DNA of 64,000 bases from an uncultured Actinomycetes bacterium (GCA_963706025.1 CAVPLM010000006.1:1-64000); one strand, 5' to 3'; positions 495 through 59,627 are shown, numbered from the stretch's first letter. Notes: generated by a model from the letters alone, not told the origin. A program made the numbers and translations.

Positions 495-2738
495 CTACGT
501 CGGCGGCACGGACGACCAGGTGACTTCGACCTTTGTCCCTTCCCCCGGGGCGGAACAGATGAGCAGATTGGCTCTGACCGACTCGGCCCGCTCCCGCATG
601 ATCCCCAGCCCAAGCTGGCCTCCGCCCGCCGCCGGGTCAAAACCGGCTCCATCGTCTTCCACGGCGAGGCGGGCGTCGTCCGGGTGCCCGACTAGGGGCG
701 CCAGCGAGACCTTGGCCTTGCGGGCGCGGGAGTGCTTCGCAACATTGTTGAGAGCTTCCTGGGCGATGCGGTAGAAGGCGAGCCGCACGTCGGTGGGCAG
801 CTCTCCGGAGCCCTCGGTGACCACCTCGACCGGTATGCGGGCGCGGCCCGTGACCGCTTCGCCGAGCTGCTTGAGCAGGTCTGGCAGCTTCGCTTCGGCC
901 AGAGCGGCGGGCCGAAGCTCGAGGAGCAGCGTGCGCATCTCGGCCAGCGCGCCCCGGCTCAGTTGGCGCAATTCGTCCAGGCGTTGGGCCCCCTGGACCG
1001 GATCTCTCTCGTAGATCCGGGGCAGGACCTCGGCGATCAGGCTCACGGAGAAGAGGGTCTGACTGACGGCGTCATGTAGGTCCCGGGCCAAGCGGTTCCT
1101 CTCCGCAGCAGCCGCGGACTCCTCCGCGTGCTCATACAGGCGCGCATTGTCGACAGCCATTCCGATCTGATTACCGAGGGCGGCGAGCGAGGACAGTTGT
1201 TCGGGAGAAGAATCCGGTTCCCGGCGGGTGAGGAGCATCAGAGCTCCAAAGACCGTCCCCTTCGCGTTCACCGGGATCTGGATCATAGAGCGCCAGCCGG
1301 CCGGCTCCAACAGACCGCGGAGTTCCTCGGAAACGGAGCCCATCGGGAGGGGCGCCGGCTGCCCCTCGAGCGCTGTCAGCCGCTGCTCCAGGTACTCAGG
1401 GGGAAGGGTGCGGATGCTGGCGAGCACGTCGGCGGGCAGATTTCGCGACGCGATCAGACGGACCTCGCCCCCCTGTCCCTCTCTCTCGGGGAGCATGAAG
1501 GCCACTCCCGCCTCGAAGCCCAGGTCGGCCATTATCTCGCCGAGCGCATCGTCGAGGATCCGTTCCAGATCGAGGGACTGGCTGACGACCGCGGCGACAG
1601 CGTTGAGCGTGGCGAGTTCCTGGGTTCGGGCGGCCACCCGCTTGTCCAGCTCGGCGTACGAGTCGCGAAGTTGCAGGGACATGATGTTGAATTGCTCCGC
1701 GAGCTCCTGCAGCTCATCATGCGTGGTGATGCTCACTGAATGCTCGAAGTCGCCTGCCGCCACCTTTCGGGCGGCTCCGGTGAGCACCTGCACCGGGCGC
1801 GTCACCCGGCGGACGCCGAACCACACCACCAGCGATGGGATCAACAGCCCGAGAACAAGTAGCACAATGAGAAAGGTGCGGTATCCCTGGAAAGGGCGAA
1901 TGATGGTGGCCCAATCTTCTATCGCGATGAGGCCCCAGTTGGTACCGGGGACGGGGGCATAGGCGGCGACGACGTCCCTCTGGCTGAGATCGCGAGTGCG
2001 CTGAGCGCCCGTCTGGCCGGATACGACGTCCTGGACGATCTTCTGAGACATCAAGTCCATGCCTACCAGAGCCGCATCTGGGTGCTGGATGACCCGGCCG
2101 TTCCCATCGACGACGTATACGTCTCCACTCACGCCCAGCCGGAGTTTGGCGATATCACCGTAGAGCGCGCTCACCGAGGTCGCTCCCACGCGGAACATGC
2201 CCGCCAGGACGCCGTTGAACTCTCCCCCGGGTCCGGTGATAGGCACAGCGACAGTCACCACGGGCGCGCCCTCCACTCCGTCGAGGCCGATGTCCGAGTA
2301 AACCGGTCGTGACGAGCGCAGAAGCTGGGCGAAGTAGGGACGGGACGACCAGCCCTGACCGACATCTCCGGGCCGGGAGGGCCAGGCGGCGGCGAATGTG
2401 CCACGGGGATCGAGGATGATCGTCCCGGCATCGAAGATAGAGAGCTTGTTCGAGGCCGCGGCCAGCGCCTTCTCCTGTTGGGCCGGTTGGTTGCCCGCGA
2501 TATCCGCTTGCCGGGTCAGGCTGCCAAGATCCAGGGCGAACTGGTTGATCTCGGCGGCCAGGTTCGCGGCCGACAAGCGAGCGAGTTCCTGATTGCGCTG
2601 TATGGCCTGCTGCTCTGTCACGCGGCCATACGCGTACACTGCGACCAGCGCCACGGCAAAGAGGATGACCGCGGTCGGCACAAAAGACCAGGCGAGAATC
2701 CTTCTTCGCAAAGGGCTGCGCGTGAAAAGAGCTCTCAT
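495..2738 (-). CDS. Sensor histidine kinase (TM-dCache-TM-HAMP-GAF-HisKA_3-HATPase)
   Basis: Two TM helices flanking a Cache-like region; HAMP (DELQELAEQFN); ERNRLARDLHDAVSQ H-box; QEALNNVAKHS; DDGAGF; GLGIMRERA. Confidence 0.95.
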   Translation of the reverse strand: MRALFTRSPLRRRILAWSFVPTAVILFAVALVAVYAYGRVTEQQAIQRNQELARLSAANLAAEINQFALDLGSLTRQADIAGNQPAQQEKALAAASNKLSIFDAGTIILDPRGTFAAAWPSRPGDVGQGWSSRPYFAQLLRSSRPVYSDIGLDGVEGAPVVTVAVPITGPGGEFNGVLAGMFRVGATSVSALYGDIAKLRLGVSGDVYVVDGNGRVIQHPDAALVGMDLMSQKIVQDVVSGQTGAQRTRDLSQRDVVAAYAPVPGTNWGLIAIEDWATIIRPFQGYRTFLIVLLVLGLLIPSLVVWFGVRRVTRPVQVLTGAARKVAAGDFEHSVSITTHDELQELAEQFNIMSLQLRDSYAELDKRVAARTQELATLNAVAAVVSQSLDLERILDDALGEIMADLGFEAGVAFMLPEREGQGGEVRLIASRNLPADVLASIRTLPPEYLEQRLTALEGQPAPLPMGSVSEELRGLLEPAGWRSMIQIPVNAKGTVFGALMLLTRREPDSSPEQLSSLAALGNQIGMAVDNARLYEHAEESAAAAERNRLARDLHDAVSQTLFSVSLIAEVLPRIYERDPVQGAQRLDELRQLSRGALAEMRTLLLELRPAALAEAKLPDLLKQLGEAVTGRARIPVEVVTEGSGELPTDVRLAFYRIAQEALNNVAKHSRARKAKVSLAPLVGHPDDARLAVEDDGAGFDPAAGGGQLGLGIMRERAESVRANLLICSAPGEGTKVEVTWSSVPPT

Positions 2739-2759
2739 GCGGCGACTTGAACCGGCGCC

Positions 2760-4232
2760 TTAGTTCCCGGCGTTCGTCTGAGCTGCTTCGATCTGTCGGC
2801 TCACGTCGTGCAAGATGTCGACCGGAGCTTGACCGAGGGTGAAGATCTTTGTAAAGGCGTCGCTGAGCAGGCGAGTGGCTTCGTCCATGTTGCTCGGGAA
2901 GACCTCCTGGACGACCGAGTAGCCTTCGCGGTGTGCGGCGGCGAACACGTCGAGATCGATGTCCCCGGCCTTCTCCGGGTACTGCTCCTTCACGAATCGC
3001 TGCCAGTCTGCCACAAGCGACAGCCGGGCCGGCTGCAGCAGGTTCGCCTCCGCCATGGCCAGCCCGTACTCCTTGCTCACGAGGAACTTAACCAACTCCC
3101 AGGCCTCCTGCGGATGCCGCGTTCCGGAGTAGATTCCGAAGCCGTCGGTCGTGCTCAGTGTCACCCGCTGCGCCGGCCCCGCCGGGATGGGCGCCACGCC
3201 GATACGGAAGTCGGCGTTTTCAAGGATGTTCTTGAGCCCCCAGGAGCCATCTTCGACCATCGCCAGCTTGCCCCCGTAGAAAGCCGCCTGGGTCCCCACG
3301 TTGTTCACGTCCGTGAACGTAGCCATCACCTTGTCGTCCCACATGCGCGCCCGCACCCACTCGAGAGCTGTCAGCGCCTCAGGGCTATTGATGACGCATT
3401 TGGACGGATCGCTGGGATCTACGATGTGGGCGCCCCAAGCATTGATGTGGACCTGCAGCCGGTCCCACCCGATATCGATCATGCTGCCCCAGATGTCGGT
3501 CTTGCCGTCGCCGCTGGTATCGCGAGTCAGCTTCTTCATGGCCGCAAGGTAGTCGTCGTGAGTCCAGGAGGCATCGGGATACGCCACGCCGTACTTGTCG
3601 AAGATGTCCTTGTTGTAGTAGAGGACGAGGGTGCCCTGGTACTTCGGCACGCCGAACTGGCGTCCGCTCGCGTCGAAGAAGGCCTTGTACTGGGCCGGAT
3701 CCCAGTCGGCGACGATGGCCGGGTCCAGGTCGGTCTCCACGTACTTACTCAGGTCGAGCACGTAGCCTTTCTGATTCCATGCGGGGAAGAACTCGCAGCA
3801 CCCCTGGAAGACGTCGGCTGCGTTACCGGCCTGCATGTCGAGGGGCATCTCGTCGGCGAGGTTCTCGGGGTCCGGCGTGTAGAAGACGCTGAGGTTCGGA
3901 TGCTCCGCCTGGAAGATCGTCAGCTCTTTCTGAGCCATAGGAGGAAACCACTCGGTCCTCCAGTCCTGGTACACGAGTTGCACCCTCTGCTCCGTCGAGG
4001 ATGACGTGGAAGGGCTGCTACCGCACCCCGCCACGACGAGGCCGGTCGTCGCGAGCGCGCAGGCGAGCAGGGCTGCCCCCGCCAACAGGCTGCTGAATAA
4101 TGACGCCGCGCCGTCAGGGCGCGATGGCCGCGCGCGAGAGAAGAACGCAGGAAGTGCGAATAGCAGCGCTATTCGTGCGACCGAGGACGTGCTATCGCGC
4201 CGGCCAGTGCGTTCTGGGGGCCGTGGCGTCAT
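2760..4232 (-). CDS. Extracellular solute-binding lipoprotein (sugar-type, family 1)
   Basis: Lipobox VVAGC followed by a Ser/Thr linker; LYYNKDIFDKYGVAYPD, FYGGKLAM, EAWELVKFL. Start uncertain (4232, or 4307 with an ATGA overlap); the ORF-track 5' part overlaps the regulator gene and is not real. Confidence 0.9.
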   Translation of the reverse strand: MTPRPPERTGRRDSTSSVARIALLFALPAFFSRARPSRPDGAASLFSSLLAGAALLACALATTGLVVAGCGSSPSTSSSTEQRVQLVYQDWRTEWFPPMAQKELTIFQAEHPNLSVFYTPDPENLADEMPLDMQAGNAADVFQGCCEFFPAWNQKGYVLDLSKYVETDLDPAIVADWDPAQYKAFFDASGRQFGVPKYQGTLVLYYNKDIFDKYGVAYPDASWTHDDYLAAMKKLTRDTSGDGKTDIWGSMIDIGWDRLQVHINAWGAHIVDPSDPSKCVINSPEALTALEWVRARMWDDKVMATFTDVNNVGTQAAFYGGKLAMVEDGSWGLKNILENADFRIGVAPIPAGPAQRVTLSTTDGFGIYSGTRHPQEAWELVKFLVSKEYGLAMAEANLLQPARLSLVADWQRFVKEQYPEKAGDIDLDVFAAAHREGYSVVQEVFPSNMDEATRLLSDAFTKIFTLGQAPVDILHDVSRQIEAAQTNAGN

Positions 4233-4303
4233 TGTTCGGTGGCCTCCCAAGGCAGGACGGCGCGCGAGCCATCGCACCGTGCGTCTGCGGGACCCGGCCG
4301 ACC

Positions 4304-4942
4304 TCATTTGACCAACCGCCCGTGGATGGCCATCGAAGCGGCCTCGGTGCGGCTGGCGGCCCCGAGCTTCATCAAGATGTTGCTGACATGGAACTTCACC
4401 GTCGACCGGCTTACGAACAGCTTCTTGGCTATCTCGGGGTTGCTCAGGCCGTCCACCATCAACTGGAGTATCTCGAGCTCGCGCTCGGTGAGGCCCGGGT
4501 CGGGCTCGGCGGGATGGGTTGTAGCCCGTATCAGTACCTCGGCCGCCTCCGGCGCCAGCGTCGGCCGGCCGGCGTGCGCAGCCCTGATGGCGTTGGCCAG
4601 CTCGTCCGCCGAGACGTTCTTCAGCAGGTAGCCGATGGCTCCGGCTTTGAGCGCCCCCTGCACCAGCTCCTCTTCCTTGTAGCTGGTGAGTGCGATGACC
4701 TGCACGTGCGGACAGGTCTGGCGGATCAGCCGGGTGGCCTCGGAACCATCCACCTCCGGCATCACCAGGTCCATCAGGACCACGTCGGGCCGGAGGTCCG
4801 GGCACTTGCGCACCGCTTCCAGACCACCGCTGGCGTCACCCACGAACTCCAGGTCGTCGTATGCCATCAAGAACGTCGATAACCCGCTCCGCACCACCGC
4901 GTGGTCGTCAACGATCATCACTCGTACCGCTCCCGCTTCCAT
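4304..4942 (-). CDS. NarL/LuxR-family response regulator
   Basis: IVDDHAVVR, VLMDLVMP, GYLLK, and LuxR HTH LTERELEIL...SNPEIA...TVKFHVSNILMKL. Confidence 0.97.
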   Translation of the reverse strand: MEAGAVRVMIVDDHAVVRSGLSTFLMAYDDLEFVGDASGGLEAVRKCPDLRPDVVLMDLVMPEVDGSEATRLIRQTCPHVQVIALTSYKEEELVQGALKAGAIGYLLKNVSADELANAIRAAHAGRPTLAPEAAEVLIRATTHPAEPDPGLTERELEILQLMVDGLSNPEIAKKLFVSRSTVKFHVSNILMKLGAASRTEAASMAIHGRLVK

Positions 4943-13381: not shown

Positions 13382-13576
13382 CGACCCTCGGCCCAGGGTA
13401 AGACGACCGGCGTCCGGCTACCTCGCTGGGATTCGACCCTGGCGGCTCAGAAGCACACCATCAAACTGCGCATTTGCCCTCAACAGCCAGGGTTCCTCCC
13501 CGAGCGGCTTGTCAAGGATTCCTCTCACCTCAGCGTGTCTGCTGTAGAAGTAGCACAATGGGGGTGGAACGAATCC

Positions 13577-14146
13577 ATGCGTGCGGATGACGAGATCCTC
13601 TCGCCAAGCGGGGGCGTGACCGCCTTGAGGGAACGGCCGAGGAAACGGGGCACAGTCCGCGAGCTCACGGGTTACGGTAGCCCGGACGAGGTCTTCGAGG
13701 ACCACTACGACCGCCTGGTGCAGGCACTCACGATCCTGGCCGGTGACCGCGAAGTGGCAGCCGACGCCGTTCAGGAGGCGTTCGCTCGTCTGGTGCGGAG
13801 CTGGGACTATCTGGCCCGCTACCAAGATCCGGCCGGCTGGGTGCGGCGCGTGGCTCTGAATCAGATCCGCGACAACCGCAGACTGTCGTTTAGGCAAGCC
13901 AGGTACCTTGCGCGATTCGGACAACAGGAGCCCACTACCGACGGACCGACCGCGGAAGATCCGGTCTTGTGGGCGAAGGTAAGAGCTCTCCCCCTCAAGC
14001 AACGCACTGCCGTCGCCTTGTACTTCGTAGGCGACTTGACCGCCCGGGAGGTTGCCCAGACCATGCGGGTCTCCGAAGGCACGGTCGACCAGCACCTGCA
14101 CCGGGCTCTGGAAACGCTTCGCGACAAACTGGAGGGACAGTGGTGA
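13577..14146 (+). CDS. ECF RNA polymerase sigma factor
   Basis: Region 2 ADAVQEAF...WVRRVALN; region 4 LPLKQRTAVAL...AREVAQTMRVSEGTVDQHLHRA. Confidence 0.93.
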   Translation: MRADDEILSPSGGVTALRERPRKRGTVRELTGYGSPDEVFEDHYDRLVQALTILAGDREVAADAVQEAFARLVRSWDYLARYQDPAGWVRRVALNQIRDNRRLSFRQARYLARFGQQEPTTDGPTAEDPVLWAKVRALPLKQRTAVALYFVGDLTAREVAQTMRVSEGTVDQHLHRALETLRDKLEGQW

Positions 14147-16581
14147 CCGACTACCCGCAACTTCGAGACAGTCTGAAGTCGCTGGCAGGACCGGTGGATC
14201 ACGACGCGGCGTGGGCGCAGATACGGCAACGGGCCGGGCGAAGGCGGCCGATGGTCAGCCTCTGGGATCGGACTAGATCACGATTGGCGGCTCTTTGGCC
14301 GGATCCGCGCTACTTGGACGAAGCCGCTGTCGCGGCTGAGGTCGAAGAGCGGTCTGGTGTCCTGAAACAAGCCTCCGCGCCCAGGCGGAGGAGCGGCTTG
14401 CGTATCGCGGTCCTTGCCTCTGTTGCCGTCGTCCTCGTGGCTGCCATAGCCGTCGGAAGCCTCCAGGCTGTCAAATACCTGGGCAAAGACCAACCCATCG
14501 TGGTGATCACCGACGACACCGTCGGAATCTCGCCGGGTTCGACCGGCCAGACCGCGCAGAGTCCGGGGGGGGTGCTCGCGACACTAGGTGCGGGGAATGA
14601 GGAGTGGGGGGCGGACAGCACGATGTGGGCGGTGAGGGCCGACGGTTCCCTCTGGGCCTGGGGGTATGACCCCTTTAGCCCCGACTCTTTCGCCCGCGTC
14701 GGCTCCGACACCGACTGGGTGGCCGCCGACGTGGACGGCTCGCAGTATCTGGCCTTGAAGTCCGACGGCTCCCTCTGGGCCTGGGGAGAAACGATCGGCG
14801 ATAACTGGACCGGGTTTACCAGCGTCTTCCGCTCTCCCGCTCGCGTCGGTTCCGACACCGGCTGGATGGCCGTAGCCACGGGCGCGGACCGACGGTTGGC
14901 CGTGAGCACCGACGGCTCGCTTTGGGTTTGGGACACGGAAGCGGGTTCTACCATCAACACCTCTCCCACCCGCCTCGGCTCCGACACCGATTGGGTGGCT
15001 GTGGCTGCCGGCGGAGGCTACTTTGTGGCCTTGAAGTCCGACGGCTCTCTCTGGGAATGGGGAGTGAGCTACTCGATCGACAGCAGCTCTCCCACCCGCG
15101 TCGGCTCCGACACCGACTGGGTGGCCATCTCCGCGGGCGGCTCACATTCGCTGGCCATGAAGTCCGACGGCTCCCTCTGGGAATGGGGAATGATAGCCGG
15201 CGCTCCGACTGCTGAGGGCACCACCTATCTCGACTCTCCCACCCGCGTCGGCTCCGACACCGACTGGGTGGCCATCTCCGCGGGCGACGCTCATTCGCTG
15301 GCTTTGAAGTCCGACGGGTCGCTCTGGGCCTGGGGAGACAACCTGTGGGGTCGACTGGGTGACGGTACCAGTACTACTCGCACCCTCCCCACCCTGGTCG
15401 GCTCCGACGCCGACTGGGTCGCTGTCGCGGCAGGTTACTCTCAGTCTCTGGCCCAGAAGGCCGACGGCTCCCTCTGGGCCTGGGGAGAGAACTTCGGGCG
15501 CGTTCCTCAGCAGGTCCTCGCCGCAGCGGAGACCACCGAAGAAGCAGGGGATTCGGCCTATACGTTCAACTGGCTGCAGAACTACCCCCGGCTTCTGGAC
15601 CCGGCCAACGATGTGATGATCATGAAGGTCACCTCGCCCTCGCCTTCCTACTGGCGGGCCAACGCGCTCGAAACCTTCACCGGCAACGCCTGGACTGCGG
15701 TCCAGGCCTTCCTTGAGCGCCTGGAGCCTACGCGGAGCGGGGACTCCTACGTCTACTCCGTACCGGAGGTGGCGCCCACACCTCCGGGGCTGACCGTCTC
15801 CCAGTCCTTCCAGGTGCAGTCGGTCTACACCAACTACCTCTTCGTGGGAGGCGACCCCCGGTCGTTCAGGATCGACCAGGATCTCGCTCTGCGTACCAAC
15901 GACGTGCGCGCCCTCCATTCGAACAAAGCCCTGGGGCCCACGCTCGCCTACCGAGTCACCGCCGTCATCCCCGATCTTAAGCCCACGGACGTGGTCGGCA
16001 AGGGAAGCGACTATCCCCAGGCTCTGGATCGCTACCTGGGCCTGCCCTTCCTCCCCGCCTCCCGGATCGAGGGCCCCGACCAGGAAGCCAGCTGGCGAAG
16101 CACCGTACCGGACAGCTTCCCCGGGGGTGGGGAGTGGGTGGACCTCTACGCCCTCAACCGGGAGATCATCGGCGAGGCCACCGACCCCTACGAGGTCACC
16201 CTGCGCATCGAGCGCTATCTGCGCAACTTCTTCGAGTACTCGCTCACCCCACCTTCCAGCGACTACTCCTCCCCCTACTCGGCTTTTCTGTTCGACACCC
16301 GCTCCGGCTACTGCCAGCATTTTGCCGGGGCCATGGCCCTGCTGCTTCGCTACAACGGCATCCCGGCTCGGGTGGCGGTGGGCTTCACGAGCGGTGAACT
16401 GGATGAGTCGAGCCCGGACACCTATACCGTGAGCACCAACAATGCCCATGCCTGGGTGGAGGTCTACTTCCCCCAGATCGGCTGGGTGGCCTTCGACCCC
16501 ACCCCCGGGCTGGAGCATACGATCCCCACTCCGGGAGCTTCCTCGACCAGCCCGGGCTTTGTGAATCCGTTTGGCGAGTAG
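14143..16581 (+). CDS. Putative anti-sigma membrane protein with RCC1-like repeats and C-terminal transglutaminase domain
   Basis: GTGA overlap with the sigma stop and SD GGAGG; one TM helix (IAVLASVAVVLVAAIAV); seven DGSLWxW repeats; catalytic motifs GYCQHFA, HAWVEVY, FDPTP. Confidence 0.88.
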   Translation: MTDYPQLRDSLKSLAGPVDHDAAWAQIRQRAGRRRPMVSLWDRTRSRLAALWPDPRYLDEAAVAAEVEERSGVLKQASAPRRRSGLRIAVLASVAVVLVAAIAVGSLQAVKYLGKDQPIVVITDDTVGISPGSTGQTAQSPGGVLATLGAGNEEWGADSTMWAVRADGSLWAWGYDPFSPDSFARVGSDTDWVAADVDGSQYLALKSDGSLWAWGETIGDNWTGFTSVFRSPARVGSDTGWMAVATGADRRLAVSTDGSLWVWDTEAGSTINTSPTRLGSDTDWVAVAAGGGYFVALKSDGSLWEWGVSYSIDSSSPTRVGSDTDWVAISAGGSHSLAMKSDGSLWEWGMIAGAPTAEGTTYLDSPTRVGSDTDWVAISAGDAHSLALKSDGSLWAWGDNLWGRLGDGTSTTRTLPTLVGSDADWVAVAAGYSQSLAQKADGSLWAWGENFGRVPQQVLAAAETTEEAGDSAYTFNWLQNYPRLLDPANDVMIMKVTSPSPSYWRANALETFTGNAWTAVQAFLERLEPTRSGDSYVYSVPEVAPTPPGLTVSQSFQVQSVYTNYLFVGGDPRSFRIDQDLALRTNDVRALHSNKALGPTLAYRVTAVIPDLKPTDVVGKGSDYPQALDRYLGLPFLPASRIEGPDQEASWRSTVPDSFPGGGEWVDLYALNREIIGEATDPYEVTLRIERYLRNFFEYSLTPPSSDYSSPYSAFLFDTRSGYCQHFAGAMALLLRYNGIPARVAVGFTSGELDESSPDTYTVSTNNAHAWVEVYFPQIGWVAFDPTPGLEHTIPTPGASSTSPGFVNPFGE
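14620..15490 (+). repeat. Coding tandem repeats (RCC1-like blades)
   Basis: GGCTCCGACACCGACTGGGTGGCC-like unit at 14701, 14848, 14977, 15103, 15250 and 15400 (period 126-150 bp). Confidence 0.9.
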
Positions 16582-16736
16582 TTCGTCGGAACTCCGTTCT
16601 TCACGCATGAAGTCACTCCAAAGGCCCCCGGCGCAGGCAAGGACGCATTCTGGCGTTCGAGTCGCGTAGCCGGGAAGGCTCGTAGCGGAACTGCGGGAAA
16701 GATGGGGGGAAACGTGGGGGCCTTCTAACTACCCGA

Positions 16737-16764
16737 TTGCCCCCAGCGGGCATCGGCCTACAAT
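16737..16764 (+). promoter_or_regulatory. Putative sigma70-type promoter
   Basis: TTGCCC-16 nt-TACAAT upstream of 16840. Confidence 0.35.
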
Positions 16765-16839
16765 GAAGCTACATGGGGAGCAAGGTAGCCTCCCTCTCGG
16801 CGGCGGTCTCCACCAGAAGGACGCGGCAAAGGAGCAGCC

Positions 16840-18672
16840 ATGGCAAGGAGAATCACAGGCGTTGTGGTCGCGGTAACGCTGGGGTGCATTCTTGTGCTTC
16901 TCGCTCTGGCCTTGCCGGCGAGGGCGTCTGAGCCCAATCCCTATCATTACTGGTCCAGCGAACGGCTCAACTCGGAAGGCAGGTGGAGCCACGTCTGCGA
17001 TGTGCGAGGCGATGATCTCCTCTGGTCGGAGCCCTCTCCGGGATTCGAGGGCGCCAGCGGAGTAGCAGACGATCCCCGGCTGCTCGACATGGCGTCCGGG
17101 GCGCGCTCCCTCCCTGCTGCCGGTCTGATGTTGGCCAGCCCGGCGCCTGCGCCGGTGAGAGGCGGGGGACTTGCGCCTACACCTCGATCGGTCCTGATGC
17201 CAATAGGCCCGTACTACGCGGCCAAAGAGCTGTTCCGATTCGGTATTCAGGCGGCCGGAGGCCGGAGAGAGGGTCCGGCATTCGCAGCGCGATGAGCCGT
17301 ACCAGCCGAACCACGAGGCTACGTGGCCTGGGCCACAAGCGGGAGGCCGTCCGACCCTACCTCTACTCCATCGACCAGTCGGCAGCTGGCGAGCGAGGAA
17401 GCTCCCGAAGCCGGCCTTCATGTCGGCGATGGGAGAAGGCGGTGTCGCCGGACGAAGGAGCGCGTCATTGTATCTGTATGACATCGCGATCCCCAGATCT
17501 GGTTGCTCAAGGGGGAGTAGACGTGACAGCGGCCGGATCATCAGGAACGGCTGGCGTGGGACCAGGATGGCGCGGTTGGCATCGCGCCGGATCAGCGACG
17601 GCGTGATGATGGCCACCGTCAAGGTGGCCGATGAAGATGTAGAGAGGGATTCGACCTTCAGCCGAGCGCCTCGTCTGGTCGATTGAATACCTCGAGGGAG
17701 AAGGCGGTGTCCAGGGCCGATCATCCCCCGATGTCATAACTGAAGAAGAGTCTCCGAACGGGGTACCAGATCACTGGTCTCACAAACGATGACGAAGCTC
17801 TGGCTCATGATAGCGACCACGTTCTGGCGGCCGGCAAGAACGCCGTCGAACGATCGCCAGACCTTGCGATCCGGGAGAACGTCTACGGTCGCCCCGTACG
17901 CCTATGGCTTCCGCCTCGACGGGGACCGGATCGGCTGGTACGAGTATCGAAGTAAGGGAGCCGCCTTCCTCGCGCAGGCTCATCGCTTCTCCGACGTTCC
18001 GCCGAATCACCCCCTCTACTCGGCCATCGAAGATCTCGCCCGGCGCGGCATCGTTGCCGGATTCAGCGATGGCAACTTCCGGCCCAGTGGGCCGCTCACC
18101 CGCCAGCAGTTCGCCAAGATGATCGTGAAGACTCTGGGGTTCACGGTGACCGGGAACGAGTCCTGCCGGTTCGCCGACGTGGACAGCGGGGTGGACCCCA
18201 GCGATCCCTTCTACCCGGATAAGTACGTGGCCGTGTGTGCCCTAATCGGGATCACCCAGGGCAAGACCCCCACCACCTTCGCGCCGTATGACAACATCAC
18301 CCGGGCCCAACTGCTTACCATGGTGGTGCGAGCGGCGGCGCGGATGGGCATCCTTGATGACCCGAGCCCGGCCTACTATCTGGGCACGAGCGATGGCACT
18401 CACTTCTTCCGCACCTGGGACGATCCCGATCATGCGCGTAGCGCCCAGACCGCGGAGTTCAATGGTCTCCTTGACGGGCTGGTCCTGGATGACTCCTCGA
18501 GCCTGCCCGGGACCCTTACAAGAATGCCACCCGGGGAGAGGTGGCCCAGATCCTGTGGCGCTTGCTCCAGAAGATGGACGCGAAAGGAACTAAGCATCAG
18601 GGTCGCCACAGGAGGCCGGAGGGGGGAAGGCTCGAAGGACAGGTGGACGGGTGTCTGGGGTCGCACGTTTAG
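16840..18672 (+). CDS. Secreted protein with C-terminal SLH domains (multiply frameshifted)
   Basis: Signal peptide ending ARA; propeller-like pieces (PYLYSID, LYLYDIA, FRLDGDRIGW) in different frames; SLH motifs FSDVPPNHP...GIVAGFSDGNFRP...TRQQFAKMI, ITRAQLLTMV, ATRGEVAQILW. Confidence 0.75.
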
Positions 18673-18873
18673 GGATCTGGCCGTTAGGGAATACCTATAG
18701 CGAGTCCCGAGAGACGTAGCGCGTCTTCTAGAGGTTCTCACAGGAGCTGGTGCAGAGGAAACGCGGGATCAAAACACTGCGGAGTACATTGAAGCGTCAG
18801 CAAGTGGGGGTCGTTGAAGGAAGGAAAGCGGAGCCACTTGGGACTCGCGCTTCGAACAAACAAGGAGGTCAAG

Positions 18874-19329: not shown

Positions 19330-22256
19330 CTACAGGAGCTGGAAGCCCGCCCGTATAGGGAGCGGCGTTCTCGAGCGCCTGCAGCGCGGTGATCACCTCA
19401 CCGAGTCGCTTGATCTTCTCTCCGTAGGTAGCCCAATCGTCGATTCGCTGGGCGGCCCGCGCTTCCTCGTAGAGCTGCTCGGCCAGGTCGAGAAGGGCCG
19501 CGCGATCGGTCGGAAGCGTCCCCGAGATCGTCGTCGTGGTCGTGCCCGGCGGGCACCGTGGTCGTGGTCGCTGAGGGGATGGTGGTCGTGGTGGCCCCAG
19601 GGACCGTGGTGGTTGGACCAGAGGGTACCGTGGTGGTCGGACCTGTGGGGGTGCCGGAGAAGATGGTATCGAGCGCCGACGGCAGGTCTTTCTCCATCAC
19701 CACCACATCGCCGTATGCAACGATCACCCGGGTCAACTCGGGGATGGCGCCGCTCTCAGACTGAAGGTACAGAGGCTCCACATAGATCAGCGAATCTTCC
19801 ACCGGTATGACCAGGAGATTCCCCCGTATCACCTCACTCCCCGCTTGGTCCCACAAGGTGAGTTGGGACGAGATGACAGGATCATTGTTGATGCGAGCTT
19901 CCACCTGGGCAGGGCCGAACACCAGCTTGTCCTTGGGGAAAGCGATGACGACCAGCTCTCCGTACTTGTCGCCGTCCATGCGGGCGGCCATCCAGGAGAC
20001 CATGTTCTGCTTGGTGCGGGGGGTGAACGGCTGCAGGAGCACGAACTCCTCCTCGACCACGCCGGGCAGGGCCATCACCAGGTAGTAGGGCTCGACGATC
20101 CTCTCTTCCTCCCCGTACATCTCCGTCGCGATCTGCCACACGTCTTCTTTGTTGTAGAAGATCTGTGGCTCCGTCATGTGGTAGACGGAGAGAGTCTCCG
20201 CTTGGATACTGAAGAGATCCTCTGGATAGCGCACGTGCCGGCGGATGTCGTCGGGCATCTCCCCGCCCGGGGTGAAGAGCCCGGGATAGATCTTGCCCCA
20301 GGTAGTGGCCAACGCATCGTCGGGATCCATTTGGTAGAAGGTCATGTCGCCGTTATAGGCGTCGATGACCACCTTGATGGAGTTGCGGATGTAGTTGAGG
20401 CCGCCTGGACTCGGCTGCGAGTTAGGGAAGCGATCGGTGGTGGTGTAAGCGTCCCATATCCAGACAAGGCTGCCGTCGTCACGCATCGCGATGTAGGGAT
20501 CTCGGTCGTACTGCAGGAATGGGGCGATGGTCTGCACCCGCTCGGCGAGCGAGCGCCGGTACAAGATGCGGGAGTCGGGCCGCAGGTAGTCAGAGACCAG
20601 TAGCTTGATCGTGGCGAAGCGCACGCTGAAGATGAGCTGGCGCGGAAAGCTACCGATGTCCACGCCACCAGTCCCCTCGTACTCGGCAAACACGTTTTCG
20701 TCGCCCATGGGATAGTCGAACTCTTTGGCGGTCGTGTTGACCAAAACGAAGGAGTCGGGGACTTCTCCATAGTAGATCTCGGGGCGCGTGACGCTCAGAG
20801 ATGTCTCGCTTGGGGGGGTATGTCGCGCACGAAAAGCTGCGGAAGCCCCTGCTCGGTCGGCCTCGCTCACCGGGCTGACCACCACTCCGTATCCATGCGT
20901 GTAGGTGAGGTGCTGGTTGACCCAGGTCTGGGCCTGGCCACTCAGCTTCGAGTAGTCGAACTCCCGGGCCGCGAGAAGGACCTGCCGGTACATATCGTCG
21001 ATGACATAGCGGTCGACATCCACATCAGTGAAGGTGTAGTAGGTGCGTATCTCCTGTATCTGCCGGTAGGTGTCCAGCGCCGGGCTGGGATCCCACACCC
21101 TGACGTTATCGAGGGTGGCGGCGTTAGCCGCGATGGAGTCCGCGTCGAGATTGGTGTTCGCTTCGAACGGAAACGTCTTCACCTCGTTCAACCCGAAGGC
21201 CCAGCGCGTCGAGCCGATGTTGTTGGCGATGTAGGGGGTCTCTTTCTCGATCTCTGTGGGCGACACTCGGTACTGCTGCACGATGGCCGGGTAGATCTGC
21301 CCGGCGAAGAGCCAGGTGACGAACAATAGCCCGATAGCCAAGGCAGGGAGGCGCCAGCCCTTGAAGTAGATATTGATCAGGAACAGAACGGCTGCGATCG
21401 CGGCGACGATGGCCAGGAAGCGCAGGACCGGTATCTGTACGTTCACATCGGTGTAGCTCGGCCGAAGGTGACGCCGCGCTCGGAGTAGGCCAGACCCCAC
21501 ACCCCAGGAGGTAATCCACGGCCTTGCCCAACATCGCCACGGCCAGGATGACCGACAGGTGTGCCTTCACGTGCGGTGCCGCGCGCAAGCTGCGCCCCTC
21601 CACGCGGATCGCTCGATGGGAGATGTAGATACCCAGGGCTCCCAGAAAGCTGAAGAAGAAGCAAAGCATCACGAAGGTCAAGACCATGCGGGCGACGGGC
21701 AATGTGAACACGAAGAAGGCCGCATCCCGACTGAACACCGGCGCACTGAAGCCGAAGTCGACCTGCCGGAAGAAGAGCCATATCCGCTCCCAGGATCCAG
21801 CGTAGCCCACGGCGAATATCACTCCCAACACGATGGAGATCGCGAGGAATAGGCGACGACCTCGCCGAGTCTGAGTGTCGACAAGTTCGTAGACCTCACC
21901 CTCGGTATCGCCGGCCGGTCTCACCTTGGGTACGAAATACCGGGCGAGCCGTAGGTTGCCGTAGAAGATGGCGAAGAACACGACACCGCGGCCACCATGA
22001 CCACGAGCGGCGCCCAGATCCTGGTCCAGAAGACGGTGGTGAAGCCCATCTCTTGGAACCAGAGATAGTCGGTGAAGAATCGGGAGACCACCCACAAGAG
22101 AACGACGAGGATGATGATCCCCAGCGGGACGAGAACGGCCGTCCGGCCCTTCCAGCTCGCGCCCCGCCACCAACGCACCAGGCCTTGCAGTTGATCCGCC
22201 GGCGTCTTGGGTCCCGCGCCGCTCCCTGCTCCGCCATTCTCGCGACCGGTAACCAT
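19330..22256 (-). CDS. UPF0182 family membrane protein (several frameshifts)
   Basis: FTDYLWFQEMGF, FFVFTLP, SYTDVN, DVDVDRY, WVNQHLTYTHGYG, NYIRNSIKVVIDAYNG, RYPEDLF, YVEPLYLQS, DWATYG; 3' end uncertain. Confidence 0.92.
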
Positions 22257-22315
22257 GAGGCCTCCTTCTTGCGCCAGGAACTCGCTGCGCCTGGCCCCGG
22301 TAATCTACCACATAG

Positions 22316-22816
22316 GTGGAAGTTGACTCTGACCCCAGGCTCGGCGCCGATCCACCGACCGGCGCTGGCGGGCCCTTCCTACTAAGACCGGTCCCTGCTA
22401 GGATGCATTCCTTGGGGTCCTTGCACAGAGGTGCCGCCTTGAAGATAGAGCAGAACGGGTCCGAGTCCGGCGAGATCTCGGCCAACGGCAGTTTCGTCAT
22501 AGTCCACGTTCCCGTCCAGTTGGTGGGGCAAGTCCCCGGGGGCGGGGCTACCCTGCGCTACAGCATCGGCTCCTTTGTCGGCCTGGAGACAAGGCTGCTC
22601 GCACGGACCGGCCCGCAGGCAATGCTCACCTTTCGTATCCCCAAAGAACTGTTTCGTGCCCGCCAACGCCTCCATCTGGAGGTCTTGGCGAGAGACGACG
22701 AGGGCCTGCAGAGGGTCCTCTGGACCAAGCGCTATGAAGCCAGTTGGACAGGGAGCACCCCCCACGTGGAACCGGTCGTCGACCTCCTGGGGGAGGGACC
22801 CGAAGCCAAGCACTGA
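22316..22816 (+). CDS. Hypothetical protein
   Basis: 166-aa ORF filling the gap; no motif recognised; start uncertain. Confidence 0.55.
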   Translation: MEVDSDPRLGADPPTGAGGPFLLRPVPARMHSLGSLHRGAALKIEQNGSESGEISANGSFVIVHVPVQLVGQVPGGGATLRYSIGSFVGLETRLLARTGPQAMLTFRIPKELFRARQRLHLEVLARDDEGLQRVLWTKRYEASWTGSTPHVEPVVDLLGEGPEAKH

Positions 22817-23280: not shown

Positions 23281-25128
23281 CTAGAACCCGGTCGTAGGCG
23301 GGCTGGTGGTCGACGTCGGCTTCTCGGTCGTAGTGGTGGTGGCCGGGGGCTTCGTGGTGGTGGTCTTGCCCGTGCCTACCTCGACCTCCTGCGGGATCAT
23401 CTTCCATTTGCTGATGAAGGTGTCCTTGTGAATGACCGAGCCGTCCTTGGCCTTCACGACGCGGACCACCTTGATCTCCTTGCCGTCCTGGCCGGACATC
23501 CTGATGAACGTGGTCCCGGGACCCAGCCAGGAAGCCTTGTATTCGATCTTCGTCATCTTATCCACGTCGTAGAAGTCGCTGGTCTTGTAACTCACGGTGC
23601 GGCCGTCCTTGGTGCCGTAGATGTTGAACGTGGTGGTGATCCCGTTTGAGGCGCCTCGGACGAGGATGTAGTGGTCGGTGTCGTTTCGGAAGCGCATGTT
23701 CGGCGACTCCGCGCTTACCGTAGCGTCCCTGCCCTTGGGATAGTGGTCGATGAAGATGGAGTGGTTCTTGCGCTCTACTATCTCGAGCCCGGCGAAGAAA
23801 GCTGCGTTGAAGAGCGTGGTCGATACCTGGCAGATACCGCCTCCCAACACGTCCTCCAGTTTGCCCGGGCCGGTAATGCCATGCGCCAGCTTGTATCCTC
23901 GCTTCTCGGTACGCGGGCCCACCTGCTTGTCGAAGTCGTACACCTCGCCGGGAGCCAGGAGCACGTTGTTGGCGTATTCAGTGGTAATGCGCACGTTGGT
24001 CTGCCGGTCCTCGGTCCCTTCCCACTCGGTGATGAAGCCACCCAACTTGTCTTGGATGCCCAGGGACTCGGCTTCTTCGGTGGTGCGTTCGGGTTCGGTT
24101 GTGGTCACGACCACCTTGGCCGATCGCCCAGAAGCCTTGAGAGAGGCGGCCGTCAAAGCCTTGGCAGTCTCGTCACGGTCCAGCTTCCTCCCCTTGGCGG
24201 CTGGGACCACCCACGCCTGCTGTCCGTCACTCTTCCACGTGGCGTTGACGGGTTTTCGCACTACCCGCTCGGCGATCTTGTCAAAGAACGGGCCCATCTT
24301 CTCTACAGAGAGATACGGAACCAGAGTGGAGACCCCGTTCCGGTCCTCAGTAGAGAAGTCCATGTAGGCGCCTATCTGCTCGGGCGTGAGCTCCCAAGTC
24401 CTGTCGCCGTCATTGAGCACCAGATCGGAAACGATCATCTTCTTGGCCTGGACGACCGCTCCCTGGCTGTCCTCCGCCTGGATCTCGGGATCTTCGAGCA
24501 CCATGGGAACGGCCAGCTTTGTCGCATGGAGGGTGAAGAGCAGGGCCTTGAGCTCCTCACGTACGGCGGCTTGATCGACTACACGCCCCTTCTGGCCCTC
24601 TACCACTCTGACGTCGGTGCCGTCGATGATCAGTCCGGCGTTCACGGGGGGCATGTCGATCTCTTTTGCCACTTCGGCCAGGACCTCGTCCATCAGCTCG
24701 CTGTCGACCGTCCCTTCGAGAGCCACGGCCTTGTCTCTGAAGAACAATCCGAGACGTCGGCTCATGTCGACCAGGAAATTGCTTTGTCGAGACACGTCCA
24801 TCGCGGCCGACACCGCGCCCGTCACGTCGATCTTGGTGCCCACATCGCCGGGCATGACCGGCCAGGTCTTGTCGCCGCTCGTAAGGGTGATCGGCTCATC
24901 CTGGGCTTGTTTGACCAGTCTCGTGAGAGCAGCCGTGGCCTCATCGCGTGTGAGACCGCCCACAGGGTGGCCGGAGACGGTGACTCCCGCGTGCACCTTG
25001 TTGTAGTAGAGGGCGGAGTCTATGAGGGCGGCGAGCCCGAACAGGGCGATGACGGAACCGACCGCGATAAGCACGCGGAGTCGCCCGCGGCCGCGCCGGC
25101 GTTTCTTGCTAAGCCTCTTCTTTGCCAA
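23281..25128 (-). CDS. VanW family protein with peptidoglycan-binding (YoaR-like) domains
   Basis: Basic N-terminus and TM; GVTVSGHPVGGLT; GGGICQVSTTLFNA; ERKNHS...YPKGRDATV; FRNDT; Thr-rich tail. Confidence 0.93.
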   Translation of the reverse strand: MAKKRLSKKRRRGRGRLRVLIAVGSVIALFGLAALIDSALYYNKVHAGVTVSGHPVGGLTRDEATAALTRLVKQAQDEPITLTSGDKTWPVMPGDVGTKIDVTGAVSAAMDVSRQSNFLVDMSRRLGLFFRDKAVALEGTVDSELMDEVLAEVAKEIDMPPVNAGLIIDGTDVRVVEGQKGRVVDQAAVREELKALLFTLHATKLAVPMVLEDPEIQAEDSQGAVVQAKKMIVSDLVLNDGDRTWELTPEQIGAYMDFSTEDRNGVSTLVPYLSVEKMGPFFDKIAERVVRKPVNATWKSDGQQAWVVPAAKGRKLDRDETAKALTAASLKASGRSAKVVVTTTEPERTTEEAESLGIQDKLGGFITEWEGTEDRQTNVRITTEYANNVLLAPGEVYDFDKQVGPRTEKRGYKLAHGITGPGKLEDVLGGGICQVSTTLFNAAFFAGLEIVERKNHSIFIDHYPKGRDATVSAESPNMRFRNDTDHYILVRGASNGITTTFNIYGTKDGRTVSYKTSDFYDVDKMTKIEYKASWLGPGTTFIRMSGQDGKEIKVVRVVKAKDGSVIHKDTFISKWKMIPQEVEVGTGKTTTTKPPATTTTTEKPTSTTSPPTTGF

Positions 25129-56908: not shown

Positions 56909-57137
56909 GTGCGCTCCTCCGTGGATCGATGACGAAGCCAAAGCCGGGACGAGCGGAGTCTAGCCAACCGCCGCTTGTATAATGCTCCAAGTAAGCCCGG
57001 GCGGCAAGAGCCTGCCTCGGTCGTGAGCGTCGGTGGCGAGCGTCGGCCGCGAGCGGAGGTCACGCCGAAGCGCGTGCGCGTCGATCGCGTCGGCCGCCTG
57101 GGCGTCGGTCGCGCCTGTTCGCACAAGGAGGCATGTA

Positions 57138-57734
57138 GTGGAGTTCCAGGAACTGATAGCCCAGCGATACGCCTGCAAGCTCTTTGACGGCCGGCCGGTC
57201 CCGGAGGAGACTATGGCCGAGCTCCTCGAGTTGGTGCGCTGGGCCCCGTCGGGCTTGAACATGCAGCCGTGGAAGATCAGGGTCGTCAGCGACGCTGCGA
57301 CGAAGGAGCTCCTGTCGCCGGCCACCCACGACGAACCTCAGGTCAAGAGCTGCTCGCACCTGCTGGTCTTCTGCGCCGACACCGATGTGGCCGCCCTCTC
57401 CGAGAAACTCGGCCGGGAGATGAAGACCCACCACGTGCCGGAAAAGATCTGGGACATCGTCATGGGTATCGCCGGCGAGATGGCCGCTCTGCCCGCGCCT
57501 GCATTCCGGTCCTGGTCGCAGAGCCAGGTCTACATCGCCGCCACCTACGCCATCCTGGGAGCCAAGGCCCTCGGTCTCGATTCCTGCCCGATGACGCACT
57601 TCATGCCCGAGGAGTACTCCCGCATCCTGGGACTGCCGGCGATTCTCGCGCCGACCATACTCTGCGCCGTGGGCCACGCGGCCGACCAGCCCAAGCCCAA
57701 GTGGCGCTATCCGGTGGAGGATTTCATCATCTGA
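57138..57734 (+). CDS. Nitroreductase family protein
   Basis: RYACKLF, APSGLNMQPW, LGLDSCPM; SD AGGAGG. Confidence 0.93.
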   Translation: MEFQELIAQRYACKLFDGRPVPEETMAELLELVRWAPSGLNMQPWKIRVVSDAATKELLSPATHDEPQVKSCSHLLVFCADTDVAALSEKLGREMKTHHVPEKIWDIVMGIAGEMAALPAPAFRSWSQSQVYIAATYAILGAKALGLDSCPMTHFMPEEYSRILGLPAILAPTILCAVGHAADQPKPKWRYPVEDFII

Positions 57735-57844
57735 ACCCTCTGGGCATCGACTGCGGCCGGGGCCGCCCGGCCGGTCACGCCGGCGCTGCCGGCACGCCGA
57801 CTCCTGGCGGCCGTCTGGGAAGGCGCCCTGGCGCTCTCGGATTC

Positions 57845-58486
57845 TCAGCGTGCCCGGCCCATCAGGTGACCGCCTAGGCCTGTGATCCACATAAGGATGG
57901 GATAGGCCACCCAGCGCTCCACACCGCCGATGCCCAGCGCAGCTACCGGGCTGGAGTCACCCATGATCATGTACAGCAGCAGCATCGCAAGCGCGACCGC
58001 TCCCAACACGATGGAGAAATAGCGGAAGGGCGACGTCGCCAGGGTGTAGGAGACGATGGCCGCCACACCTCCCGCTACGAACGTGAGCAGGGCGAAGATG
58101 GCGTGCACGGTGCCGTAGTCGCCGGGGAAGATGCCCACCCCCAGCGCCCCGAGTCCGAACAGGGCGATGAGAATCGCTGCCGCTTTGCGTCCGAAGCCTC
58201 GCTGGATCCAGACCGACGCTGCCAGGACCAACACGCCGCACACGATCATCGTGGTATTGAAGATGGTCGCCGAGGGTTGCTCGATCACGCTATCCGGGGG
58301 CTCGGTGGCGCCCAGGTCGCTTATCTCGTTCTGAGAGGTGCTGTAGCCCGAAGGATAGAGGGCCTCGGCGGTGATGATCCCCATAAACGCGATGACACCC
58401 GCCGCAAAGAGCAGGGCGCCCGCCGCGGCGAGATATCGAGGCCGAAGGCGCTTGCCGCCCGGTTGGGACCGGCGTCCGTTGGTCAT
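57845..58486 (-). CDS. DUF998 family membrane protein
   Basis: YPSGYS...NEISDLG, FN, VGIFP, H, GGVERW. Confidence 0.85.
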   Translation of the reverse strand: MTNGRRSQPGGKRLRPRYLAAAGALLFAAGVIAFMGIITAEALYPSGYSTSQNEISDLGATEPPDSVIEQPSATIFNTTMIVCGVLVLAASVWIQRGFGRKAAAILIALFGLGALGVGIFPGDYGTVHAIFALLTFVAGGVAAIVSYTLATSPFRYFSIVLGAVALAMLLLYMIMGDSSPVAALGIGGVERWVAYPILMWITGLGGHLMGRAR

Positions 58487-58563
58487 GGGTGGTTCCTTTC
58501 TCGACTGACGACCGCTCGAAGCGGGTCGAGCGGCATTCTATCGCGTCCAGGGCAACATCGCGT

Positions 58564-59574
58564 CTAGGGGTACCGGATTCTATCGTCCTTGTTGTAGGCG
58601 GTCGTTCGATCCAGCGCCGCCAGGTGCCTCTGCTCGAGAATTTCCAGCTCTCGTTCGGGATCAAAATCGGGATCGTCTCTGGATTCGACCTTTTCGAGCA
58701 CCTCGATCACGAAGCTGTCCCTGCCGTAGGTCTCGAGATCGGCCTTCAACTCCGGATTCCAGCACATCCCCATGTCGAGCTCGAACTTGACCCGGTTAAG
58801 GGGTGGGTGCAGGTCCAAGGCCGAACCGAGCATGACCCGGCCGTTGGCCGTGTTGACCACTCTGAACACTCCCGCCTGTTTGGCTCGCTCTTTGTAGGCG
58901 CGGCGGAGCGCAGCCCGCCGCGCCCGGCTGTCGGTGTCATCGCGGGGGCTTGTTTCATCGTGAGGGCTCATCTGAGTTTCTCCTGGTTCTCCGACCCAAG
59001 GCGATCGCGTTCCTTGGGCCGGCTTGTCGGTGCGCCGATACCGGCCTGCCTGGCGCTGCAAGTAGCCCGCGTCTACCAGCAGTCTTCGGACCAGGCAGTA
59101 GTCGGCGTACAAGGTCGAGATGGTTCGGTCGACCTGGGGTTCCTCGTATTCCGAGCCCGGGGGGAAGAGCGCGGCGAACTCTTCCAGGACCATGTCTCGC
59201 TTGCGCTTCTGGGCCGGCATCCGGGTGAGCCGACCCTCAGAGAAGAAGGTGGCCAGGACCCTTGCCCGTTCTTGATCGACCCGTTCGGCTCGCGGCCCCG
59301 CCCCCGTATCCTGGAATCCGATCAGATCTCGCACTGTGAGCGCTTGCAGGTCGGGCCGGAGCGCATATACGGCGTAGTACTGTTCTTTCTTGAGATCGAC
59401 GAGACCGGCCAGCTTTAGCTTCTTCAGGTGGAAAGACACGGTCGACGAGGCCAGCTCCAGCCTGTTTGCCAGCTCTTCCACACACATGGGCCCCGACAGC
59501 AGGGCTCCCAGGATGAGCAGACGCGAGCGGTCCGCCAATGCCCCACCTACGGCCAGGGATTCTTCGATATTCAT
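58564..59574 (-). CDS. ArsR HTH - DUF2087 - GIY-YIG-like fusion protein
   Basis: ALADRSRL...STVSFHLKKL; YEEPQVD...DYCLVRRLLVD; AYKE...GVFRVVN...LGSA...NPELKAD. Confidence 0.85.
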   Translation of the reverse strand: MNIEESLAVGGALADRSRLLILGALLSGPMCVEELANRLELASSTVSFHLKKLKLAGLVDLKKEQYYAVYALRPDLQALTVRDLIGFQDTGAGPRAERVDQERARVLATFFSEGRLTRMPAQKRKRDMVLEEFAALFPPGSEYEEPQVDRTISTLYADYCLVRRLLVDAGYLQRQAGRYRRTDKPAQGTRSPWVGEPGETQMSPHDETSPRDDTDSRARRAALRRAYKERAKQAGVFRVVNTANGRVMLGSALDLHPPLNRVKFELDMGMCWNPELKADLETYGRDSFVIEVLEKVESRDDPDFDPERELEILEQRHLAALDRTTAYNKDDRIRYP

Positions 59575-59602
59575 TCGGCGTGTCCCGGTCCCTCAATTCT
59601 AT

Positions 59603-59627
59603 TTCGATATCTATCAACACAATAGTA
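59603..59627 (-). promoter_or_regulatory. -10 box and ArsR-type imperfect palindrome
   Basis: Minus strand TACTAT followed by TTGATAGATATCGAA in an AT-rich patch. Confidence 0.5.

Follow-up and report, generated by a model that had tools for sequence, protein, structure and literature searches.

An ECF sigma factor coupled to a membrane partner that joins an RCC1-like propeller to a TgpA-type transglutaminase domain in an uncultured actinomycete

We analysed a 64,000-nucleotide stretch of DNA from an uncultured Actinomycetes bacterium (GCA_963706025.1, CAVPLM010000006.1:1-64000; the whole stretch is called the window below, and positions are counted from its first letter), in which the gene of an extracytoplasmic function (ECF) sigma factor overlaps the gene of an 812-amino-acid membrane protein that combines a short N-terminal module, one transmembrane helix, an RCC1-like beta-propeller and the periplasmic domain of a TgpA-type transglutaminase. 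The window belongs to contig C6 (total to 69307) of a 30-contig, 3.66-Mb metagenome-assembled genome (MAG; G000) that is 92% complete with 7.3% contamination. The sequence supports the reading of this arrangement as an ECF sigma factor coupled to a membrane partner with anti-sigma topology. The locus comprises the following features:

13510..13538, plus strand, promoter-like element TGTCAA-N18-CGTGT of ECF type, upstream of the sigma gene
13577..14146, plus strand, ECF (group 4) sigma factor gene, 189 amino acids (Pfam r2 and r4_2, TIGR02937)
14143..14146, plus strand, GTGA start/stop overlap (sigma stop TGA at 14144-14146, partner start GTG at 14143-14145)
14143..16581, plus strand, anti-sigma-like sensor gene, 812 amino acids (P0001), open frame with no internal stop
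14143..14244, plus strand, predicted sigma-binding helices, residues 1-34 (complex model; conserved among paralogs)
14245..14397, plus strand, variable Arg-rich cytoplasmic linker, residues 35-85 (varies among 15 aligned members; outside the confident interface)
14398..14463, plus strand, single transmembrane helix, residues 86-107, with RRRSG before it (hydrophobic stretch in all 15 aligned members)
14479..14517, plus strand, juxtamembrane motif LGKDQPIVVITDD, residues 113-125 (conserved; candidate processing site)
14584..15501, plus strand, RCC1-like seven-bladed propeller, about residues 148-453 (Pfam, repeat motifs)
15502..15558, plus strand, linker between propeller and transglutaminase domain, residues 454-472, with VPQQVL (15502-15519)
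15559..16578, plus strand, complete TgpA periplasmic domain, residues 473-812, made of a beta-rich part and the transglutaminase core (fold model, Foldseek)
15564..16559, plus strand, putative gene-conversion tract, 996 bp, 99.7% identical (3 mismatches) to tgpA at G000:C3:241769-242764 (minus strand)
16312..16314, plus strand, codon of the catalytic Cys724, with His769 at 16447-16449 and Asp785 at 16495-16497 (motifs, alignment to solved TgpA)
16579..16581, plus strand, stop codon directly past the ectodomain; the C-terminal transmembrane helix and tail of TgpA are absent

The sigma protein scored 32 bits against Pfam Sigma70_r2 (cut-off 24) and 49.4 bits against r4_2 (cut-off 25.7), without a Pfam match to region 3 or region 1.2, and its score of 66.2 against TIGR02937 (sigma70-ECF, cut-off 42.9) places it in the ECF family. 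Its best NCBIfam match, to the actinobacterial SigE family (TIGR02983), reached 102.8 bits and stayed under the cut-off of 141.55, so the protein was not assigned to that family. We kept the start at 13577 that had been chosen in the original prediction; an in-frame GTG at 13535 falls within the promoter-like element. An extension of about 35 residues ahead of region 2, outside the Pfam region, is conserved among the sigma paralogs (window 13382-13700). The TGTCAA-N18-CGTGT element recurs with the same spacing upstream of 8 of the 16 sigma paralogs and orthologs examined, and the window's own copy is a variant outside the search patterns that was recognised by eye. Using a strict pattern, we found three matches in the genome, each 5' of one of these sigma genes; shuffled genomes gave 2-3 matches at arbitrary places, and a looser pattern gave 79 genome matches. 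The sigma factor is probably autoregulated through this element.

The frame of the partner gene is open from 14143 to 16581, and its overlap with the sigma stop codon is read as translational coupling of the two genes. The GC content at third codon positions is 70-86% along the partner open reading frame (ORF), with the values of the transglutaminase part shifted by one codon position. The publicly annotated protein (P0003) has 727 amino acids and begins at the transmembrane helix; we preferred the 812-residue reading because the 85 residues ahead of the helix are conserved among paralogs (alignment A2, 15 members). By the positive-inside rule, these residues would lie inside the cell. In the juxtamembrane motif, L113, I122 and D124 are invariant in the same alignment and D125 is nearly so. 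Just outside the motif, at 14518-14580, lies a Ser/Thr/Gln-rich linker of the STGQTTQT type that most family members also have (by eye). The whole protein matched no NCBIfam family.

The propeller was detected with RCC1_2 (90.2 bits, cut-off 22) and RCC1 (58.5 bits, cut-off 21.7), and the whole-domain model PF25390 reached 130.9, under its cut-off of 150. Seven DGS[LV]W.W motifs lie at residues 167, 208, 257, 300, 342, 391 and 441, and sequence matches in the PDB are to HERC2, UVR8 and RCC1. The blades also repeat at the DNA level between 14961 and 15492 (periods of 126 and 147, 80-84% matches), which suggests recent duplication or homogenisation of blades. The linker that follows the propeller (residues 454-472) resembles the natural C-terminal tail of a family member that has an RCC1 propeller only (L044). 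Glutamines are the residues on which transglutaminases act, and for this reason those of the STGQTTQT-type linker and of VPQQVL could be substrates. The original prediction, made from the DNA alone, had described a GTGA overlap coupling the sigma gene to an 812-residue protein, an N-terminus of about 85 residues before one transmembrane helix, and seven RCC1-like repeats, and the open frame, the paralog alignment and the motif and profile matches bear out all three.

To model the complex, we used the sigma factor (5-row alignment) and partner residues 1-85 (15-row alignment) in 3 runs, together with 3 controls. The sigma/partner runs scored 0.86, 0.79 and 0.81 (median 0.81) against 0.03 for the best control, with a contact agreement of at least 82% and a partner pLDDT (predicted local distance difference test) of at least 64. 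When the tool was calibrated, 116 of 157 solved complexes and 2 of 215 mismatched pairs reached the mark, figures that apply only roughly here, with our own alignments used. The confident interface joins partner residues 1-34 to sigma residues 37-74 (region 2) and 124-189 (region 4): the partner is predicted to wedge between the two regions in the geometry of an anti-sigma factor, and binding is supported at the level of a model. The gene is adjacent to and co-oriented with its sigma gene, as expected of an anti-sigma gene, and contact with regions 2 and 4 is likewise predicted. The anti-sigma topology previously proposed for this protein, with the N-terminus binding the sigma factor, agrees with this model.

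Using residues 1-162 as a query, we found eight further places in the genome that share the N-terminal module, the transmembrane helix and the juxtamembrane motif. A phmmer search with the sigma protein returned nine loci in the genome (E <= 2e-14), all nine directly 5' of a member of the partner family, and several of these pairs overlap by 4 bases (among them L025 and L026). The paralog ectodomains tested in this genome are BNR/sortilin or PQQ propellers. Searches of protein databases turned up only ten relatives of the N-terminal part, with BNR/sortilin, PQQ or VanW ectodomains. We then scanned 185,579 species genomes with a 7-row alignment (A4) and obtained 10 loci from 5 MAGs, whose labels are uncultured Actinomycetes, Actinomycetota or Gaiellales. 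All 10 have a sigma gene upstream; one (L044) carries an RCC1 propeller only, two have ectodomains that look Kelch-like by eye, and none of the 10 carries a transglutaminase domain.

In a genome of the same genus (G003), the ortholog is 69% identical over residues 1-127 and then continues into a BNR/sortilin ectodomain. Because homology to this ortholog ends right after the juxtamembrane motif, at residue 127, the motif marks the joint at which ectodomains are exchanged. A further member on contig C5 (G000:C5:200041-200509; L027:1871-2509, minus strand) has 212 amino acids and breaks off near the beginning of the first BNR-like repeat. The N-terminus of this member is the nearest to that of P0087, a BNR-type relative described below, and the juxtamembrane linker is almost identical to that of the window protein. 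The gene is probably truncated and, as such, a further sign of recombination among paralogs. Comparison of these loci supports a lineage-restricted family of uncultured Actinomycetota with multiple paralogs, in which the N-terminal module, helix and motif are common and the ectodomain differs.

The C-terminal part of the window protein matched Transglut_core with 100.1 bits (residues 670-786) and TgpA_N with 37.1 bits. The latter match spans only profile positions 217-330 of 333, and the multi-transmembrane part of TgpA is therefore missing. A model of residues 470-812 had a pLDDT of 93.6 and a pTM (predicted template modelling score) of 0.92; its best Foldseek matches were the periplasmic domain of Pseudomonas aeruginosa TgpA (6g4h and 6g49; E 2e-19, template modelling score 0.69-0.71 of the target), and phmmer aligned the sequence to 6g49 with an E-value of 6e-23. 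Across 68 aligned TgpA-type sequences the catalytic Cys and His are invariant, and the Asp column is conserved below 90%. The module is cut exactly at the membrane boundaries of TgpA at both ends: canonical TgpA runs about 185 residues beyond the point where the fusion stops. The transglutaminase core with its Cys-His-Asp triad and the TgpA fold are thus present, and the multi-transmembrane N-terminus, the C-terminal transmembrane helix with its tail and the MoxR-DUF58 operon are absent; a scan of 18 ORFs between 495 and 25903 of the window revealed neither MoxR nor DUF58. Both an intact triad in a TgpA-like region, with the Cys codon at 16312, and the lack of multi-transmembrane N-terminus, MoxR and DUF58 had been claimed beforehand, and they held.

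The genome encodes only one other Transglut_core protein. It is a canonical TgpA of 761 amino acids (P0009), encoded on contig C3 just after the DUF58 and MoxR genes. The C-terminal 340 residues of the window protein are 99.4% identical to it, and the inner 996 bp differ from its gene at only 3 positions. On either side of this tract, seven codons 5' and eight codons 3' are homologous to tgpA as protein and carry many synonymous differences. Because these flanking homologous codons have diverged, we interpret the locus as an old fusion with recent gene conversion and not as a fresh capture; the pattern suggests that the inner 996 bp were overwritten recently from the resident tgpA. The resident tgpA is the likelier donor, since the ectodomain and the transmembrane part of the canonical copy have diverged from its orthologs to a similar degree.

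Since the MAG mixes strains, an assembly chimera, that is, an RCC1-type anti-sigma gene joined to tgpA reads, had to be excluded. Such an artefact would account for a block nearly identical to another contig of a multi-strain MAG, and none of the metagenome contigs placed on the locus spans the full 2 kb. Logan contigs from four freshwater and sediment metagenome runs, which belong to three studies, were aligned to positions 14900-16900. The 5' junction at 15564 is bridged in two studies, by contigs of runs X3 (15292-15599, 272/36 letters) and X4 (15459-15596, 105/33 letters), the 3' end is bridged in X3 (16452-16772), and run X1 joins the fusion-specific last codons to the downstream DNA with no differences (16568-16751). 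Canonical tgpA contigs with their own flanks were present in all four runs. Contigs from independent metagenomes thus bridge both ends of the fusion, the flanks of the block are diverged tgpA homologs, which a chimera would not produce, and proteins P0087 and P0282 have the same design, so that we regard a chimera as highly improbable and largely refuted. Support by reads near 15500-15560 had been named in advance as a check on the architecture; contigs of X3 and X4 cross that region.

P0087 (855 amino acids) is an intact fusion of a BNR propeller and a transglutaminase domain, with the same junction, the same last four residues and the catalytic residues kept; P0282 (757 amino acids) is a second BNR-type fusion and shares this junction. 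Among the best 120 relatives of the module, a propeller occurs only in the window protein and P0087, and among the best 150 representatives such fusions are the window protein and P0282 only. Among the shorter relatives of the module that were inspected, four turned out to be truncated calls of canonical TgpA. In a metagenome scan with P0087, none of the best 61 (L048-L108) of at least 80 loci ends like the fusion, and the contig of P0087 itself was not among the matches listed. That the transglutaminase tail is a functionless recent recombinant, a tolerated by-product of recombination between paralogs and tgpA that adds nothing to signalling, would suit a family in which swapped ectodomains and truncated or frameshifted members are common (the 212-residue C5 member, P0282, L043, L045), and would also suit the absence of the fusion from 40 related genomes. 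We consider it very unlikely, given that the junctions sit exactly at domain boundaries, that the frame is intact over 1020 bp, that the same architecture is intact in the diverged P0087 with its catalytic residues retained, and that the fusion occurs in at least 2 other metagenome studies.

The near identity of the module to resident tgpA also allows a reading in which it acts as bait: a replica of the housekeeping TgpA ectodomain, kept alike by gene conversion, so that anything able to bind or attack TgpA, be it a phage receptor-binding protein, a toxin, an inhibitor or TgpA's own partner, would also strike the anti-sigma factor and switch the sigma factor on. The module is the entire TgpA ectodomain, beyond the catalytic core, its DNA is 99.7% identical to the resident gene, and the VanW-type family member likewise bears the fold of a resident envelope protein. 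The two BNR-type fusions fit the same idea in being 76% identical over 650 residues, about 81% in the part that precedes the module and about 60% in the module itself; over the first 124 module residues P0282 is 58.2% identical to P0087 and closer to five canonical TgpAs (64.8-70.5%). The branches of the fused copies are long (0.43 and 0.31, against a median of 0.17). Against the bait, a single conversion can arise by neutral chance, the tree has little resolution, a P0087+P0282 clade is not rejected by an AU (approximately unbiased) test (p 0.251), the nearest canonical relative of P0087 in databases is just 72% identical, and the VanW-type member is only 56-59% identical to the resident VanW proteins, which indicates that family copies are not generally kept alike. 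For these reasons (the poorly resolved tree, the AU test and the VanW-type member), recurrent conversion between fused modules and tgpA is a lead and not a result, and we hold the bait to be unlikely. Its strongest form, an integrated decoy in which a replica of the essential TgpA ectodomain is kept identical by recurrent conversion and reports TgpA-targeting phages, toxins or inhibitors through the sigma factor, is quite unlikely; if true, bacteria would have a counterpart to the integrated decoys found in plant immune receptors.

The reading that we favour, and that we consider somewhat probable, is that the locus encodes an ECF sigma/anti-sigma signalling pair of the lineage-restricted family, with the RCC1 propeller and TgpA ectodomain as its input. 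The ectodomain would sense an envelope or extracellular cue, regulated proteolysis would take place near the juxtamembrane motif and be followed by a site-2 protease cut (a Peptidase_M50 candidate is present in the genome), and the freed sigma factor would drive its own TGTCAA-N18-CGTGT promoter. More tentatively, and with distinctly less assurance, the transglutaminase module may be catalytically competent and part of the input, where it would engage a protein held by the propeller or process or cross-link the sensor itself. We favour an active enzyme, since even P0087, diverged as it is, retains the catalytic residues. In vitro, the periplasmic part of TgpA has transglutaminase activity (PMC3507681).

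Catalytic residues in both the window protein and P0087 would also serve a self-anchoring sensor, in which the transglutaminase forms covalent cross-links between a wall or surface-layer component and the propeller sensor or the sensor's Gln-rich linkers, and strain on, or loss of, the tether is the signal. Gln-containing linkers lie beside the membrane and ahead of the module, a gene with an SLH domain lies 1.2 kb downstream, and the idea parallels the proposal that EsrD retains EsrA on the surface of oral Actinomycetales (bioRxiv 10.64898/2026.09.08.750141). We rate it as doubtful, since the protein is already anchored by its transmembrane helix, no MoxR, vWA or kinase genes are adjacent, and EsrD is itself only a putative TgpA-type enzyme.

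Several observations weigh against the favoured reading of a signalling pair. The complex score may mirror how much the pair resembles solved sigma/anti-sigma complexes and need not mean that this copy binds, and the N-terminal module matches no Pfam anti-sigma family (residues 1-136) and lacks a zinc motif: residues 1-85 contain no Cys, hence no HxxxCxxC, and the module is not a class I (ZAS) anti-sigma domain. The strict promoter pattern, searched over the whole genome, yields the promoters of the sigma genes themselves and no further regulon member. We found no more than three transglutaminase fusions (the window protein, P0087 and P0282), P0282 is frameshifted within its module, and the fusion occurs in 0 of 40 related genomes. 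The MAG is a strain mixture, with 7.3% contamination and contigs duplicated at 93.6-98.7% identity: the end of C6 (window 56937-64000) recurs on C2 (96.0%), C24 (98.7%) and C4 (93.6%), C1 and C8 share 97.8% identity, and C1 and C29 share 91-98%. Because the MAG mixes strains, C6 and C3, which carry the fusion and the canonical tgpA, may stem from different cells of one population.

Around the pair, the 1.2 kb past the stop codon (16582-17788) contain no convincing gene: two ORFs (16840-17295, plus strand, and 16729-17724, minus strand) were not taken as genes as they match no family and have a weak codon-position GC signal. This interval holds one sigma-70-like match (16737-16764) and no terminator-like site, and a scan for sigma-70 promoters and terminators around the operon gave nothing useful. 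The SLH-domain gene spans 17789-18700. A UPF0182 gene (19398-22500, minus strand) is split into overlapping ORFs at 19398-21500 and 21124-22500, covering profile positions 230-770 and 52-214; the split is a frameshift or sequencing error near 21500. A gene with VanW and PG_binding_4 domains lies at 23281-25128 (minus strand), and a family member from another MAG (P0128/L038) has these two domains as its ectodomain. On the other side, at 495-4805 (minus strand), a dCache-HAMP-GAF histidine kinase (HisKA_3) lies beside a 681-residue ORF with a solute-binding domain, which we consider unrelated to the fusion. No MoxR and vWA genes stand next to the propeller sensor in this neighbourhood, and PADLOC gave no match for 5 proteins of the locus.

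We compared the pair with four described systems. The SigI/RsgI systems of Clostridium thermocellum and Bacillus (PMC10328401, PMC12203970, bioRxiv 10.1101/2023.06.27.546760) likewise form an array, with nine RsgI there and nine pairs here, and in both the anti-sigma factor is a single-pass protein whose juxtamembrane part is conserved and whose extracellular sensor varies. Regulated intramembrane proteolysis is shown to bring about release there and would be expected to do so here. SigI differs in being a non-ECF sigma factor, and RsgI in having an autoproteolytic juxtamembrane domain, where the present family has merely a conserved motif of about 13 residues, and in sensors that bind polysaccharides, where we find beta-propellers and, in the window member, a transglutaminase domain. 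DdvS/DdvA of Myxococcus xanthus (PMC11506125) shares an ECF sigma factor and a transmembrane anti-sigma factor with an extracytoplasmic Cys/His protease-type fold, and autoproteolysis ahead of RseP cleavage has been proposed for DdvA in the same source. DdvA has a zinc-bound CHCC three-helix domain and a caspase-like TPR-CHAT part with an incomplete active site; in contrast, the window protein has a short Cys-free module, an RCC1 propeller and a transglutaminase fold with a full triad, and, unlike at DdvS/DdvA, no defence genes were detected nearby (PADLOC, those 5 locus proteins).

With TgpA of P. aeruginosa (PA2873), the C-terminal 340 residues share the fold and catalytic residues of the periplasmic domain, but the fusion lacks the multi-transmembrane N-terminus, the C-terminal transmembrane helix and tail and the MoxR-DUF58 context, and has an anti-sigma part and a propeller instead. 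The Esr system of oral Actinomycetales (bioRxiv 10.64898/2026.09.08.750141) resembles it as an actinomycetotal surface beta-propeller sensor with a transglutaminase proposed to act on the sensor; there, however, the two are separate proteins, and signalling goes through MoxR-vWA, a kinase/phosphatase pair and an FHA protein without a sigma factor. The window protein works most like the SigI/RsgI arrays and DdvS/DdvA, and it is not a strict member of the TgpA family because the transmembrane parts and the operon context are missing. A transmembrane anti-sigma factor with an extracytoplasmic cysteine-protease fold is already known in DdvA (PMC11506125). Among the papers listed, our literature searches turned up no anti-sigma factor with a transglutaminase, nor any ECF anti-sigma factor with an RCC1 propeller plus a transglutaminase, and the main text of the ECF reclassification paper (supplements apart) mentions neither transglutaminase, propeller, RCC1 nor PQQ. 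The earlier statement that the architecture is undescribed for an anti-sigma factor therefore stands, to which the present analysis adds the paralogous family with interchangeable ectodomains, the module as a 99.7% DNA copy of the resident tgpA and the DdvA precedent.

ECF sigma/anti-sigma pairs are a major bacterial signalling route whose sensed input is mostly unknown. The family amounts to a natural domain-swap series in which one conserved transmission module is joined to five or more kinds of ectodomain (BNR/sortilin, PQQ, RCC1, Kelch-like and VanW), and one member borrows its enzyme fold from a protein on which the viability of P. aeruginosa reportedly depends. The family offers a handle on how an extracytoplasmic enzyme or protein-binding domain may be coupled to sigma release, and on the role of TgpA-type transglutaminases at the bacterial surface. 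The sharply bounded putative conversion tract, which links a housekeeping gene to a sensor gene, is unusual.

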